Positions 2,473-62,672 of a stretch of 64,000 nucleotides of DNA are shown piece by piece. Origin of the DNA: Candidatus Uhrbacteria bacterium (GTDB taxonomy: Bacteria > Patescibacteriota > Patescibacteriia > UBA9934 > GWF2-40-263). The translations under genes and the position numbers were made by a program. The notes below the pieces were generated by a model. The model made no database searches. It saw nothing but the letters and a program-made list of their open reading frames with translations, and had not been told where the DNA came from. The DNA is taken from the NCBI GenBank assembly GCA_026395055.1, contig JAPLZK010000001.1, positions 17,527 through 81,526 on the forward strand, in the 5' to 3' direction. Each line of letters begins with the position of its first letter. The stretch's first letter is position 1.

Positions 2473-2624
2473 CTTTATCTCCTGTTTACATCACATGGAA
2501 AGAACATTCAGCCCCGTGCTGAATGAGCAAACCTAGCAAAGAATATGGGTAATGTCAATCCATGATAGGTCGCCTGCAAACTCGACAAAAATCAGAATTC
2601 TGATACCCTAAAGTCCAGTACATA

Positions 2625-2750
2625 CGAAAACCTTCCAAATTGGATGCAAAATTTATGTGGCTCGAGCACCGCACGTGAGCCGTACACGGAAGTACGGTGA
2701 ACGCGGAGCACAGAGACACATAAATTTGGCGCCGATTTGGAAGGTTTTCG
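2625..2750 (+). ncRNA. ~125-nt near-perfect extended hairpin abutting the tRNA-Leu 5' end (element copy A)
   Basis: Outer arms CGAAAACCTTCCAAATTGG / CCGATTTGGAAGGTTTTCG, inner arms AAATTTATGTG / CACATAAATTT, central CCGTAC-ACGGAA-GTACGG; homologous to the element at 36095-36221. Confidence 0.5.
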
Positions 2751-2751
2751 T

Positions 2752-2837
2752 GGGATGATGGCGGAATGGTATACGCAGGGGACTTAAAATCCCCGGGAGG
2801 AAACTCCATGCGGGTTCAAGTCCCGCTCGTCCCACCA
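2752..2837 (+). tRNA. tRNA-Leu (anticodon TAA), long variable arm, CCA encoded
   Basis: Acceptor GGGATGA/TCGTCCC, anticodon loop CTTAAAA, variable arm GGGAGGAAACTCCAT, T-arm GCGGGTTCAAGTCCCGC. Confidence 0.85.
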
Positions 2838-2872
2838 CACAAACATCAAGGCAGACCTATCCGGTCTGTTTT

Positions 2873-3166
2873 TTGTATGCTCGATTGACATTCCACTCCA
2901 AAAGCCTTAAGTTCTGGACAGACACACCAGACGTGAGGCTCACCATGCCGCAAGAAAAACTGTTACCCTTTCATAAAAGCATCCTCATGCTCATTGCGAA
3001 TGCAAATGTGCAAGAGATGAGCATCTTTGCACATCAAATCCATATCACGCTGATTCCTCCGAGTAGTTATGGAGAAATTCTGCGTGCCTGGAAACGTCGA
3101 TGCCAAGAAATCAAGTGTCCAGATCATGGGATCACGGCACGGCTCTCAACCTCGGATCACAACTAA
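2873..3166 (+). CDS. hypothetical protein
   Basis: 97-aa ORF, no recognisable domain or clear RBS. Confidence 0.25.
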   Translation: MYARLTFHSKSLKFWTDTPDVRLTMPQEKLLPFHKSILMLIANANVQEMSIFAHQIHITLIPPSSYGEILRAWKRRCQEIKCPDHGITARLSTSDHN

Positions 3167-9662: not shown

Positions 9663-11096
9663 ATGATCTCTGCCCAATCTTTAGCAAAAAACTTCACCAT
9701 TCAAACCGCCGGAAAGATTTTTTCCATTTTAATCGGGCTCGCAACCATTGCGATCCTGACACGAGCCCTCAGCACAGAACAATTTGGGGAATACACAACC
9801 ACAACAACATTTCTTCAATTCTTTGGCATCCTCGTAGACTTTGGTTTCACCCTTACACTCCTTGTCATGATTTCCGAAAAAGGAGCACACGAAGAACATG
9901 TCATAGGAAATTTTCTTGGTCTACGTCTTGTCTCTGGTTTCATCCTCTTTGCATGTGCCCCAATCATTGTTCTCGCGCTTCCTTACTCATCAACCATTAA
10001 ACAAGCCGTTACCTTTGGGGCATTTGCTTACTTCCTGATGGGAGGTGCCTCCCTTCTTGTTGGAATATTTCAAAAATATGAAGCCATGTGGCGCGCAGCG
10101 CTCGCGGAACTTATCAATCGTTTTGTTCTTCTTCTCACAATCATCATCCTTGCATGGTTCCACTTCGGAGTGATCGCCTTTGTTGCCGCAATGATCCTTG
10201 CAAATGCCGTTTGGTTTTTCGTCATGATTCGATTCGCTAAACCATTCATCCGTGTTCGTTCACGTTTTGAAATCACGGCCTGGAAAAAAATCCTTTCGCG
10301 CAGCTGGCCCATTGCCGTCTCGATCATTTTTAACTTGATGTATTTAAAAGGAGATATTTTACTGCTCTCCTTGTATCGAACACAGGTAGAGGTTGGATTA
10401 TATGGTGTCGCGTATCGCATCATCGATATCCTCACCGTTATTCCAACCATGTTCATGGGATTACTCCTTCCATCCCTCACACACGCTTGGACAAATGGAG
10501 ACCATGAACAATTTCGCTCAAAGCTTTCACGCACCTTTGATCTCTTTATGATCTTTGTGATCCCAATCATTGCGGGTGCACAAATTGTTGGGGTAAAGTT
10601 AATCCAATTCATCGCGGGTGCTGGCTACGAACAATCCGGCGAAGTCATGAAGATCTTGATTCTCGCTTTATTTGGCGTATTCGTTGGGACTTTATTCGGC
10701 CACCTGGTTGTCGCCCTCAACAAACAACGTGCCATGATTTTTGGCTATGCTTCTGCGGCCATTCTCACGCTCGCTGGCTATCTTTTTACCATTCCTCGCT
10801 ATGGAATGTACGGCGCGGCGTGGATGACCGTGTTCTCGGAACTGTTTATCGCGATGGTCACGTTCGTTGTTGTGTACAAAACATCACGCGTCCTTCCGCA
10901 CCTCGGCGCATTTCTTAAATCCGTCTTCGCCGCACTCGTCATGTCGGGTTTCCTTCTCATCCTTCCCTCCATCCATGTGATCCTCGACATTCTCTTTGGA
11001 GCACTCGTGTATTTCGTGGTGATGATCCTTATTCGTGGAATCAATCTTGAGGATGCACGTCTTTTGTTACCGGGACGTTCTAAAAAATCCGTATGA
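9663..11096 (+). CDS. polysaccharide/lipid-linked oligosaccharide flippase (Wzx/MOP superfamily)
   Basis: 477 aa, ~12-14 TM helices, typical flippase topology. Confidence 0.65.
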   Translation: MISAQSLAKNFTIQTAGKIFSILIGLATIAILTRALSTEQFGEYTTTTTFLQFFGILVDFGFTLTLLVMISEKGAHEEHVIGNFLGLRLVSGFILFACAPIIVLALPYSSTIKQAVTFGAFAYFLMGGASLLVGIFQKYEAMWRAALAELINRFVLLLTIIILAWFHFGVIAFVAAMILANAVWFFVMIRFAKPFIRVRSRFEITAWKKILSRSWPIAVSIIFNLMYLKGDILLLSLYRTQVEVGLYGVAYRIIDILTVIPTMFMGLLLPSLTHAWTNGDHEQFRSKLSRTFDLFMIFVIPIIAGAQIVGVKLIQFIAGAGYEQSGEVMKILILALFGVFVGTLFGHLVVALNKQRAMIFGYASAAILTLAGYLFTIPRYGMYGAAWMTVFSELFIAMVTFVVVYKTSRVLPHLGAFLKSVFAALVMSGFLLILPSIHVILDILFGALVYFVVMILIRGINLEDARLLLPGRSKKSV

Positions 11097-12352
11097 TGTT
11101 CCTTCTTTTCCTTCTTCTCGCAATCTTTGCCTATCTCACGTGGCGCAATCTTGAAACGGGTATTCTTGTGCTGTGTGCATTGCTCCCGAGTTACTTGATA
11201 CGCTTCACGATCGGGAATATCCCAACAACATTTCTTGAAATGATGACACTGATAGTCATTCTTGTTTGGATCACGCAAAAAAAATGGAAGTTGGATATTG
11301 GAAGTTGGAAAAAAAATCCGCTTATCATTCCAATCACACTTCTTTTGATTGCAGCAACGATTGGAATTTTCCTCTCACCAGACAAACATGCAGCGATCGG
11401 AGTTTGGAAAGCGTTTTATATAGAACCGATTTTGTTGTTCTTTGTGCTTCGTGATGTGTTTACGAGATCCTTCACTTCGTTCAGGATGACGCGGGAAAAA
11501 ATATTTCAAACGTTCGGAGTGAGTGCACTCCTCATTTCCCTCTTCGGACTCGTTCAATATTTTTTCTCCATCGGAATTCCAGCTCCATGGGATCTTGAAC
11601 ACCGCATAACGAGCATATTTGATTATCCAAATGCACTCGCGTTATTTCTTGAACCCATTATTGTCATTTCGTGGTTTGAAATCGTGAGAATTACAAAGGA
11701 AACCACAAGAAACCAAAAGAAACCAAAAGAGTTTTGGTTCTGGATAGCCGTTTCGATCCTCTCGATGACGAATGTTTTTCTTGCACAATCCGAAGCAGGA
11801 CTTGCGGCACTCATTGTCACAGCCGTTTGCATCCTGCTCTTTTCAAGAACCACTCGTCGACAAACGCTTGCATCGATCCTGATCGCGGGCGCACTTGTTT
11901 TCACCATTCCAACATCGCGAACATACCTCATTCAAAAATTCACCTTCAGCGATTCTTCCGAACACGTTCGCCTTTCACAATGGAAAGAAACAATCACTCT
12001 TCTCAAAGATCACCCAATCTTTGGTGCCGGCCTCTCCGGATATCCGATTGTCATGAAGCCGTATCATCACGATCTCCAATATGAAATCTTTCAATATCCC
12101 CACAATATTCTGTTAAACATCTGGGTCGAGCTCGGATTGCTTGGACTGATTGCGTTTGCTCTTCTCGGATTTCAAATTCTTTTCCGCCCCTTCCGCCCTT
12201 TCAGCCTTTTTACATTCCTCTTTCTCGAGATTCTGCTTCACAGCCTCGTCGATGTTCCCTATTTTAAAAACGATCTCGCAATGATGACATGGATCCTGAT
12301 CGCATGTGCCCTCGCTGCACAAACACATACACTCAAAAAATCTTGCTCGTAA
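11093..12352 (+). CDS. O-antigen ligase/polymerase family membrane protein (Wzy_C domain)
   Basis: 419 aa polytopic; YPHNILLNIWVELGLLGL loop typical of Wzy_C; overlaps the flippase stop by 4 nt. Confidence 0.6.
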   Translation: MMFLLFLLLAIFAYLTWRNLETGILVLCALLPSYLIRFTIGNIPTTFLEMMTLIVILVWITQKKWKLDIGSWKKNPLIIPITLLLIAATIGIFLSPDKHAAIGVWKAFYIEPILLFFVLRDVFTRSFTSFRMTREKIFQTFGVSALLISLFGLVQYFFSIGIPAPWDLEHRITSIFDYPNALALFLEPIIVISWFEIVRITKETTRNQKKPKEFWFWIAVSILSMTNVFLAQSEAGLAALIVTAVCILLFSRTTRRQTLASILIAGALVFTIPTSRTYLIQKFTFSDSSEHVRLSQWKETITLLKDHPIFGAGLSGYPIVMKPYHHDLQYEIFQYPHNILLNIWVELGLLGLIAFALLGFQILFRPFRPFSLFTFLFLEILLHSLVDVPYFKNDLAMMTWILIACALAAQTHTLKKSCS

Positions 12353-36000: not shown

Positions 36001-36090
36001 TGGCGGAGAGGGAGGGATTTGAACCCTCGATACCCTTGCAGGCATACGTGATTTCGAGTCACGCGCATTCGACCACTCTGCCACCTCTCC
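36001..36090 (-). tRNA. tRNA-Ser (anticodon CGA), long variable arm, CCA encoded
   Basis: Reverse complement GGAGAGGTGGCAGAGTGGTCGAATGCGCGTGACTCGAAATCACG...GGTTCAAATCCCTCCCTCTCCGCCA. Confidence 0.85.
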
Positions 36091-36094
36091 ACGC

Positions 36095-36221
36095 GTAAAA
36101 CCTTCAAAATTGGCGACCTGCTTGCGCTTCGCAGAAAAAATATTTCGGAGTACTTTTTGGTACACCTCAATATTTTTTCCGCTCCAGCGCGGCGCATCTC
36201 ATCCAATTTTGAAGGTTTTAC
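36095..36221 (-). ncRNA. ~125-nt near-perfect extended hairpin abutting the tRNA-Ser 5' end (element copy B)
   Basis: Outer arms GTAAAACCTTCAAAATTGG / CCAATTTTGAAGGTTTTAC (perfect), inner arms AAAAAATATT / AATATTTTTT; arms 17/19 identical to the element at 2625-2750. Confidence 0.5.
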
Positions 36222-36313
36222 TCGACGAGAGGATAACACGCTAAAGTCGTCGTATCAAGCGTTGACAAAATCACTTTTCAATGATAAGAACTCTCTCACC
36301 CAGGAGGTGCTCT

Positions 36314-48674: not shown

Positions 48675-48774
48675 AAAAAAATAAAATTCGAAATGGAGAA
48701 ATATCGAATGTCGAAAATGAACGATACAGATCATTTTGTTTTCGTCTTTCGATATTCGGATTTCGAATTTTTAC

Positions 48775-51723: not shown

Positions 51724-51773
51724 TCTGGATCAATAATCTTGATACATTTCCGTCGATCCCAAAAGATCGACAG

Positions 51774-59642: not shown

Positions 59643-60362
59643 CTATTTATCCCAAAGCATCTCAAACATTTCCTTGAAAATATCCACCATACTTGGAACT
59701 TCGATAACAACCGCTAAAGCGGTTTGATCTGGGCTTACGATCAGGATTTTATCATCAAAGATATCCATTGTACTTTTAAATATGTGGTTCTTTGGCAGTA
59801 CTCGAACTTCTCGAAGCAACTTCTCATCATCAGGACTCGCTTTGACCGAGTCGGCTGAAAGCAGAATTCGTGTTTTTATTTTCGCATCCGCTCGATCGAA
59901 CCGAAACTTTTGAAAAAACTCAGGATTAATTCCCTCCCAAGCCGTCGCACTTCCGATCGCGTCGTAAGATTTTCCTTTATATTCAGCGAGAATGCCTGTG
60001 TAGAAACGCTCAAGCTCTTGTTTTGTCTCGATAAAACGTAGGCCTACACTCGAAACAGTTTGTTTCTCGACAGACTTTAGCTCTGGAATGATTGCATTGA
60101 ACGATTCGAGCCGCTTTTCGAACTGTCCAGCGACTTTGTCTGGCTTTTCTGCTCGATATAAACGCTTTGACTTGTGAAAATACGTAGAAGCAAAGCCTTT
60201 TTCATGCAAAGACTTGAGGATTGGATAGATTGTTGTCCGCTTCAAACCGACTTCCTTTGACAAAGCAATGGCATTTGCACCCCCAAATTTCAATAAAGCG
60301 AGGTAAGTTCGCGCCTCGTCTTCGGTTAGTCCGAGGGTTTGAAGAGTGGTTACGTGGGACAT
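59643..60362 (-). CDS. TrmB-family transcriptional regulator
   Basis: N-terminal winged HTH (LTEDEARTYLALLKFGGANAIALSKEVGLKRTTIYPILKSLHEKGF) plus C-terminal effector-like domain. Confidence 0.6.
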   Translation of the reverse strand: MSHVTTLQTLGLTEDEARTYLALLKFGGANAIALSKEVGLKRTTIYPILKSLHEKGFASTYFHKSKRLYRAEKPDKVAGQFEKRLESFNAIIPELKSVEKQTVSSVGLRFIETKQELERFYTGILAEYKGKSYDAIGSATAWEGINPEFFQKFRFDRADAKIKTRILLSADSVKASPDDEKLLREVRVLPKNHIFKSTMDIFDDKILIVSPDQTALAVVIEVPSMVDIFKEMFEMLWDK

Positions 60363-60371
60363 AAGGGGTGT

Positions 60372-60483
60372 TTGAGGTACAGATTACAGATATGGTTGAT
60401 ATACAGATAAAACAAATGGCCGATAATCTGGGCTTATTTCTAGAATCTGTATATCCGTATGCCGCCATCTGTAATCTGTACCT
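60372..60483. promoter_or_regulatory. nested inverted repeats in the TrmB-regulator upstream region (candidate operators)
   Basis: Outer GAGGTACAGATTACAGAT..GG / CCATCTGTAATCTGTACCTC (~20 bp); inner GATATACAGAT / ATCTGTATATC. Confidence 0.4.
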
Positions 60484-60580
60484 CAAGTATTTTATACTGT
60501 CAAAATTTTACAACGGAATTTGATTCTTGTCAAGCTTATACTAAATTTAGCCAAATTATTTATTAAATCCGTTTGGATCC

Positions 60581-62366: not shown

Positions 62367-62581
62367 TTTATTTCCACCTGTTTTATTCGTGTCGTCTTCC
62401 CTCTCACAATCTCGATGCGAGACTTTGCAATGTCGAGATCGTTGGACAACACTTCAATCACCGCATCATTTGCCTTCCCCTTCTCCGCAATTGCCGTTAC
62501 GGATATCTTCACGGTCTCTTCATCGATCCATTCGATCTTGTTTTGTCGCGATCGAGGTTTTACGTGGACGGTGATAATCAT
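62348..62581 (-). CDS. DUF167 (YggU/UPF0235) family protein
   Basis: 77 aa; VHVKPRS ... IAEKGKANDAVIEVLS ... IVRGKTTRIKQVEI matches the DUF167 pattern. Confidence 0.6.
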   Translation of the reverse strand: MIITVHVKPRSRQNKIEWIDEETVKISVTAIAEKGKANDAVIEVLSNDLDIAKSRIEIVRGKTTRIKQVEINNVTRE

Positions 62582-62667
62582 AAATTCGAATATCGAATAA
62601 CGAAATCCGAAAACTCAAGCCTTTTTTGTTTATAGTTTTCGAATTTCGTTATTCGATATTCGAATTT
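62582..62667. repeat. 25-bp perfect inverted repeat with nested 8-bp IR, abutting the DUF167 start codon
   Basis: AAATTCGAATATCGAATAACGAAAT ... ATTTCGTTATTCGATATTCGAATTT; inner CGAAAACT / AGTTTTCG; loop contains CCTTTTTTG. Confidence 0.65.
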
Positions 62668-62672
62668 ATTTT

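Follow-up and report, generated by a model that had tools for sequence, protein, structure and literature searches.

Long palindromic hairpins at the edges of tRNA genes in a Candidatus Uhrbacteria genome, probably mobile DNA elements carried in pre-tRNA leaders

The window, that is, the whole 64-kb stretch of DNA analyzed here, carries four tRNA genes by both ARAGORN and Rfam. Two of them, encoding tRNA-Leu(taa) and tRNA-Ser(cga), are each preceded by a long palindromic hairpin, called W1 and W2, respectively (Table 1). RuvB, encoded just downstream of tRNA-Leu, has its best named relatives among proteins of Candidatus Uhrbacteria (72% identity), and the window therefore belongs to a CPR/Patescibacteria genome. 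The foot of W1 lies 1 nt from the 5' end of tRNA-Leu(taa), while W2, upstream of tRNA-Ser(cga) on the minus strand, ends 4 nt from that of its tRNA. Each folds into a single long imperfect hairpin, with RNA folding energies of -71.6 kcal/mol for W1 (z = -11.5) and -67.8 kcal/mol for W2 (z = -11.9) that none of 200 shuffles equaled in either case. DNA parameters give -43.9 and -39.1 kcal/mol, respectively (z ~ -10). A preliminary description of this DNA had reported both hairpins, and their coordinates are confirmed by the sequence, by folding, and by the tRNA positions from ARAGORN and Rfam.

Table 1. Coordinates of the two hairpins, the tRNA genes that they adjoin, and the promoter-like sites (positions within the window)
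Feature	Position	Strand	Description
Promoter-like site, tRNA-Leu	2582..2609	+	TCGACA, 16 nt, TG-n-TACCCT; 15 nt upstream of W1
W1, palindromic hairpin element	2625..2750	+	126 nt; interior "type A"; apex GTAC-N6-GTAC; P1 arms CGAAAACCTTCCAAATTGG / CCGATTTGGAAGGTTTTCG
tRNA-Leu(taa), intact	2752..2837	+	ARAGORN; Rfam tRNA, 58.6 bits
tRNA-Ser(cga), intact	36001..36090	-	ARAGORN; Rfam tRNA, 61.9 bits
W2, palindromic hairpin element	36095..36221	-	127 nt; interior "type B"; apex GTAC-N6-GTAC; P1 arms GTAAAACCTTCAAAATTGG / CCAATTTTGAAGGTTTTAC
Promoter-like site, tRNA-Ser	36230..36258	-	Consensus scan: TTGATA, 17 nt, TG-TATCCT

The 64-kb window holds these two copies only, both extragenic. The arm motif AAAACCTTCMAAATTGG occurs in it exactly four times, namely, in the four arms of W1 and W2, and an unfiltered covariance model search of the whole window found no further copy. 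Within W2, two conserved internal loops, GCC/AA and GGA/GA, interrupt the pairing. The interiors were said to start with ATG, and so they do, as part of a conserved GGATGAGATG block that is also present in relatives (L026). The ATG is not a start codon, since the frames that it would open are 18 and 11 codons long, are not conserved, and lie within a conserved nucleotide block. The Rfam search proposed at the same time yielded no family for W1 or W2; only the four tRNAs were returned at the gathering threshold, and searches by E value gave only sub-threshold matches to generic hairpins or miRNAs.

Other structures in the window deserve mention in their own right. tRNA-Gly has no hairpin leader. 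The leader of tRNA-Cys contains only a 7-bp hairpin (GTCGATC/GATCGAC; 51748-51771) that stops 2 nt short of the mature 5' end, with TTGATC-17-TACATT upstream of it. An unrelated 115-nt hairpin at 60372-60486, whose outer arms are 20 nt long and match perfectly (TTGAGGTACAGATTACAGAT) around nested inner arms, is separated by 9 nt from the start codon of the downstream minus-strand ORF (59643-60362). Another unrelated hairpin, AT rich and 90 nt long, lies between ORFs at 62580-62669; its 36-nt arms are 97% complementary (ATAAATTCGAATATCGAATAACGAAATCCGAAAACT), and it has a weaker look-alike at 48700-48756.

What lies upstream of the hairpins? The promoter-like site of tRNA-Leu was read by eye, the consensus scan not having called it, and it aligns with the regions upstream of the same gene in two hairpin-less relatives (L017 and L020), where ~10 nt separate the -10 box from the tRNA. 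The -10 box of tRNA-Ser ends 8 nt before W2, and the same promoter is found in an empty-site relative (L021), with its -10 box 10 nt from the tRNA. As the hairpins lie between promoter-like sites and tRNAs, they are probably transcribed as leaders, and the placement of the promoters suggests that transcription would start at or just before the hairpin foot, the hairpin then forming the 5' leader. Such transcription is a consequence of where the hairpin lies and not a conserved function.

Several other identities for the element were considered and rejected. A promoter inside it would need -35 and -10 boxes in the 3' arm, suitably spaced from +1, and no such pair is there; moreover, the native promoters lie upstream and are common to the empty-site relatives. 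Neither W1 nor W2 is followed by a T-run, as a terminator would be. An attC site, a CRISPR repeat, a retron, and an omega-RNA/TnpB system were dismissed because no core sites, arrays, reverse transcriptase, or TnpB lie nearby. For integron attC, the feet were also inspected; they read GTAAAAC / GTTTTAC, with TTA where the core (RYYYAAC / GTTRRRY) has RRR, and no integron integrase was found among the neighboring genes scanned. As a separate observation, pairing reaches past the ends of W2 (36084-36113 with 36203-36232), upstream CCTCTC being complementary to GGAGAG of the 5' acceptor strand of tRNA-Ser. This complementarity between leader and acceptor is older than the insertion, since L021, with its empty site, has it too.

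Do the hairpins serve the tRNAs that they precede? One reading is that they are functional, acting as structured pre-tRNA leaders or giving rise to a leader-derived small RNA, and are retained for action at the RNA level whatever their origin. Such a leader could possibly modulate RNase P processing or precursor stability of mostly class II tRNAs, or RNase P could possibly release a near-blunt ~126-nt hairpin RNA with a role of its own. The arrangement suits this idea, as nine of the 10 tRNA-adjacent copies known from this and other genomes are in the sense orientation, between a promoter-like site and the tRNA and 1 to 4 nt from +1.

The orthologous loci of related genomes argue against it. 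In four related Uhrbacteria lineages, represented by five contigs (L016, L017, L018/L019, and L020), tRNA-Leu(taa) lies upstream of ruvB, as in the window, and has no hairpin. A promoter that can be aligned with that of the window is seen in L017 and L020, and the leader is only ~10 nt long in L017, L018/L019, and L020. The junction reads ...CTCGACAAAATTCGGTTTTCTGATACTCTATGGCGGCAA|GGGATGATGGCG in L017 versus ...CTCGACAAAAATCAGAATTCTGATACCCTAAAGTCCAGTACATA[126 nt]T|GGGATGATGGCG in the window. The closest relative at this locus, L016, whose RuvB is 90% identical, has an HNH endonuclease ORF (2592-3065) that stands alone under a promoter of its own and ends 2 nt before tRNA-Leu(taa), and the spot held by W1 in the window is thus occupied by a second kind of selfish element.

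The tRNA-Ser(cga) site, for its part, is empty in L021, the closest relative there (neighbor protein 96% identical). Removal of one 129-nt block (36097-36225, +/- 3 nt) from the window gives the L021 sequence at 142 of 150 positions, with no other indel, and because the junction shows nothing beyond CG microhomology, no target site has been duplicated. Synteny is the same in L022 (neighbor protein 75% identical), which carries at the tRNA-Ser site an internally deleted, 60-nt copy that has kept both arms and lost the center. The covariance model found no further copies in the hairpin-less relatives. Since orthologous sites exist in empty and truncated form, the tRNA can do without the hairpin, and the whole element enters and leaves the boundaries of tRNA genes as one piece, with no duplication of the target site. 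A Logan contig from the same organism as the window (SRR20698644; L013, 1-100) starts within W1, which suggests that short-read assemblies are broken by the hairpin.

How widespread is the family? Public genomes and metagenomes were scanned for the arm core pattern AAACCTTCNAAAT in both arms, and because this pattern fits only one variant of the outer stem, P1, the scans understate the size of the family. The pattern search that the preliminary description had suggested did turn up another Uhrbacteria contig (L002) with copies at further tRNA genes, namely, those for Ser-gct, Ser-tga, and Arg-gcg, and homologs in other genomes score 83 to 135 bits with the covariance model. L002 carries three hairpins of ~128 nt within 6 kb, each 1 to 2 nt before one of these three tRNAs. 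The orthologous region of a third genome (L024) is denser still, with five copies in 1.3 kb. There, one copy precedes Ser-tga by 3 nt and an 87-nt copy precedes Arg-gcg by 3 nt, while a full antisense copy, with a 5'-truncated tandem duplicate, abuts the 3' end of tRNA-Arg. Unlike in L002, Ser-gct has no copy in L024, nor has it one in L026, and these absences count against a functional leader. In three contigs (L025, L026, and L027), Arg-gcg is preceded at 2 nt by a 124-nt copy that is like W1 in its interior (a type A relative), and homologs of W2 are found in L002, L014, and L024. The L014 copy is not associated with a tRNA at all, lying instead between convergent secY and cmk-like genes, which also speaks against a leader. 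Pattern scans of viral contigs and of phage and plasmid collections gave no copies. Matches in L005 and L015 were set aside, as they are giant perfect palindromes at contig ends and most likely assembly artefacts.

Across these copies, P1 is 17 to 19 bp long and reads TAAAA-N5-AAAATTG, with variation in N5 compensated in the other arm. The interiors vary but are always paired and fall into at least two types, of which type B shares the loops described for W2. They are more alike at non-orthologous sites of different genomes than at orthologous sites; the interior of the L002 Arg copy resembles that of the L024 Ser-tga copy, and the interior of the L002 Ser copy resembles that of the copy 3' of tRNA-Arg in L024. 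Such cross-matching points to turnover or conversion among copies.

The pairing was quantified in a 10-sequence alignment. In it, 86% of cells are paired, versus 29 to 53% in slid-partner controls, and 29 of 34 pairs show double-sided changes, a level reached in none of 500 shuffles. The preliminary description had taken compensatory change as a sign of selection on RNA structure, and the leader reading gains something from the way in which the GCC/AA and GGA/GA loops are conserved while the flanking helices covary. The conclusion does not follow, however, since REPINs show the same pattern (PMC3116915) and the changes here are almost all double Watson-Crick swaps, 71 double changes versus 8 one-sided changes of the G-U type. 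So small a number of G-U intermediates weighs against a functional leader. Enrichment of G-U pairs on the sense strand, tried as a test of RNA-level selection, was rejected, with 12 on the sense strand and 15 on the antisense strand in minimum-energy folds.

Strand polarity tells the same story. In all 10 copies, the strand whose 3' end points toward the tRNA folds better, an asymmetry for which purine-rich internal loops are responsible. A better fold on the sense strand is what a functional leader would be expected to show, but the copy antisense to tRNA-Arg, at the 3' end of the gene, keeps the polarity unchanged. The polarity is therefore a property of the element and not of tRNA transcription, which again goes against the claim of RNA-level selection. 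Together, pairing and polarity are as one would expect if the element were palindromic DNA that is processed in single-stranded form.

The placement of the copies is a notable feature of the family. Of the 10 copies of the Uhrbacteria type, eight lie against a tRNA gene, 0 to 4 nt from its edge, with the same 3' end facing the tRNA, and this holds even for the antisense copy. Leu or Ser (class II) tRNAs account for four of the five distinct occupied sites, and the hairpin precedes tRNA-Arg(gcg) in all three lineages sampled and Ser-tga in two. Both regularities speak for a functional leader; the Arg-gcg site looks maintained, and the preference for certain sites could reflect selection for leader function, not targeting. 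When the junctions were compared, no conserved flank motif and no conserved 4- to 5-nt target emerged on either flank. CCA stands directly at the tRNA-side flank at only four of nine junctions, a hint only, and it is supplied either by T-1/G+1/G+2 or by the tRNA's own CCA end. This tight preference for tRNA edges is new. The preferred inference is that the insertion machinery reads the tRNA gene; alternatively, only insertions of this kind survive or are favored.

A probably related multicopy form comes from a Holosporales metagenome-assembled genome (MAG), where at least 11 near-identical copies share the arm core, the length, and the GTAC-N6-GTAC apex with the window copies. These copies have longer, 29-bp inverted ends, occur in both orientations, and lie away from tRNA edges. 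One of them (L006, 5041-5188) is inserted in-frame (~50 codons) in a 599-codon open frame, between Mur_ligase_M and Mur_ligase_C. This insertion is like those of the Rickettsia palindromic elements (RPEs), which are reportedly inserted in-frame in genes. The Holosporales form is probably kin to the window copies; its kinship rests on the extra shared features only, because the search pattern already fixed 13 nt per arm. Copies with near-identical interiors at non-tRNA loci, one even within a gene, are the kind of finding that the preliminary description had set against its functional leader. They are counted against it here as well, with the caveats that they come from a different genome and that their kinship to the window copies rests on limited shared features. 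Together with the lack of any Rfam family match, the empty tRNA-Leu and tRNA-Ser(cga) sites, and the internally deleted copy, they make a functional leader or leader-derived small RNA unlikely.

Could the hairpins instead be classical miniature inverted-repeat transposable elements (MITEs), derived from an insertion sequence (IS) with a DDE transposase and moved via their ~19-bp terminal inverted repeats (TIRs) without any single-stranded hairpin chemistry? Clear terminal inverted repeats are common to copies and genomes, the size (125 to 145 bp) and the insertion polymorphism are typical, and the Holosporales form, whose TIRs measure 29 bp and whose many near-identical copies run in either orientation, looks the part. 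Yet the only empty/filled pair shows a target-site duplication no larger than the possible CG, and none of the ~10 Uhrbacteria-type copies is flanked by a direct repeat. Pairing is kept over the whole length with compensatory change, not at the ends alone, and strand polarity is consistent, with directional placement beside tRNA genes. Nor was a full-length IS with these ends (TAAAACCTTCAAAATTG) found in the fetched loci or in phage or plasmid records. A MITE of the classical kind is accordingly quite improbable. That the two hairpins arose separately, as local palindromes or by chance resemblance, an idea to which the other, unrelated long hairpins in the window lend some color, is barely credible given arms identical at 16 of 19 positions (not 17, as first counted), the same length and apex, an arm motif confined in the window to the four arms, and the high-scoring homologs elsewhere.

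It is likely that W1 and W2 belong to a family of mobile or unstable palindromic repeats and not to a class of conserved functional leaders. Among the roles listed in the preliminary description, that of TIR-bounded miniature elements targeting tRNA 5' flanks fits best, in view of orthologous presence and absence, the internally deleted copy, and the copies away from tRNAs. The best explanation, held with moderate confidence, is that they are REPIN/MITE-like, ~125-bp, non-autonomous palindromic DNA elements that are passively transcribed in the pre-tRNA leader of an Uhrbacteria-like genome.

What might move such an element? L024 has two tandem copies immediately 5' of a gene for a 282-amino-acid protein that matches Pfam Y1_Tnp and NCBIfam NF047646, "REP-associated tyrosine transposase" (RAYT), with 81.8 bits against a cut-off of 80. 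At this locus (10703-11965), the immediate flanks of the RAYT gene are its own 32-nt inverted repeats (CGCAATGGGGTCAGGTCGGGATACGGGAATTT), not the hairpins. A 161-nt unit comprising a hairpin and the left repeat is tandemly duplicated with 100% identity, and a 14-nt tandem repeat marks the right end of the locus. No RAYT homolog was found in the 64-kb window or in any other fetched locus, and the link between RAYT and the hairpins, which comes from the single L024 locus, is weak. The substrates of Y1/HUH enzymes are single-stranded hairpins, and the target is not duplicated, a chemistry that fits both the empty site of W2, with its lack of duplication, and the single-strand-like signature of pairing and polarity. 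A RAYT-type enzyme is, on these grounds, a tentative candidate for the mobilizer.

The proposed course of events for these REPIN/MITE-like elements is as follows. (i) A Y1/HUH RAYT acting in trans would move the element in the form of a single-stranded DNA hairpin. (ii) The target would be chosen at the foot of the acceptor-stem structure of the tRNA gene, or by a short CCA-like motif there. (iii) W1 and W2 would in this way have come to occupy the very short stretch of leader that separates the -10 box from the 5' end of the mature tRNA. (iv) The whole hairpin would then be transcribed as the 5' leader of the pre-tRNA and discarded when RNase P cuts at +1. (v) The tRNAs would remain functional and the element would be tolerated.

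A more specific version, which is on the whole doubtful, would have the single-stranded DNA hairpin set with fixed polarity against the foot of a tRNA gene cloverleaf, and/or some copies domesticated. The cloverleaf would be formed by the tRNA gene itself in single-stranded DNA and would account for placement 0 to 4 nt from either gene end. Targeting of this kind, so far not described in bacteria, would be a prokaryotic counterpart, by analogy, of the eukaryotic use of tRNA genes as safe havens. Domestication may apply to copies such as those before tRNA-Arg(gcg) and Ser-tga; a domesticated copy would yield a ~126-nt hairpin RNA released by RNase P, or would tune the maturation of class II tRNAs.

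The family appears to be undescribed, having no Rfam entry and no description in full-text literature searches. CPR/Patescibacteria have small, gene-dense genomes whose mobile DNA is little described. For annotation, the family accounts for puzzling "structured leaders" beside tRNA genes and for contigs that break at these places, and its filled, empty, and truncated alleles are natural strain markers. If a Y1 transposase does recognize the secondary structure of tRNA genes, this would amount to a principle of targeting that is new and might be of use for site-directed insertion. If, on the other hand, the position is kept by selection, a selfish repeat would have been recruited into tRNA maturation.

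How do the hairpins compare with known systems? REPIN/RAYT systems are extragenic and comprise tens to hundreds of copies per genome. The elements described here are like REPINs in measuring ~100 to 130 bp, in having two conserved inverted ends around a less conserved spacer, and in folding as a whole unit into a long hairpin. They are also extragenic and non-autonomous, show excision polymorphism without target duplication and common compensatory changes, and at one locus (L024) copies adjoin a RAYT gene. They differ in that W1 and W2 have no evident short REP palindrome tagged GTAG or CGTC; by eye, the arms in L002 and L014 do contain small local hairpins (GCGT-CAGAT-ACGC and GCGTAAC-N6-GTTACGC) and a GTAG. 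The host, too, is different, a CPR bacterium with a streamlined genome in which the copy number appears low (two copies in 64 kb); copies of the window type lie 0 to 4 nt from tRNA gene edges with fixed polarity, and the L024 RAYT gene is flanked first by other, 32-nt repeats. In their account of REPINs (2011, PMC3116915), Bertels and Rainey describe inverted ends that are conserved, a spacer that varies but forms a hairpin, frequent compensatory changes, and excision that is asymmetric, and the word "tRNA" occurs 0 times in the text.

The ends of IS200/IS605-family elements and of their palindrome-associated derivatives, which move by Y1 HUH transposition of single-stranded hairpins, offer another parallel, as hairpin structure outweighs sequence in both, strand polarity is present, no target duplication is made, and placement is directional relative to a short target. 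The hairpins of that family, however, are short and subterminal, with left and right unlike, whereas here the entire element is one hairpin, and neither flank yielded a conserved 4- to 5-nt target. Correia/NEMIS MITEs and RPEs are likewise small palindromic repeats with terminal inverted repeats that are transcribed with neighboring genes; Correia elements differ in their TA duplication and in their promoter and RNase III functions. Finally, the retroelement Ty3 lands within a few base pairs at tRNA genes. TRE5-A of Dictyostelium lands ~50 bp upstream of them (PMC3159450). The likeness, which is one of analogy only, lies in the use of the tRNA 5' flank as a place where a mobile element can land safely in a genome crowded with genes. 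Ty3 and TRE5-A are retroelements that read Pol III transcription factors, whereas the elements described here are bacterial DNA hairpins that come to lie 0 to 4 nt from the mature end of the tRNA.
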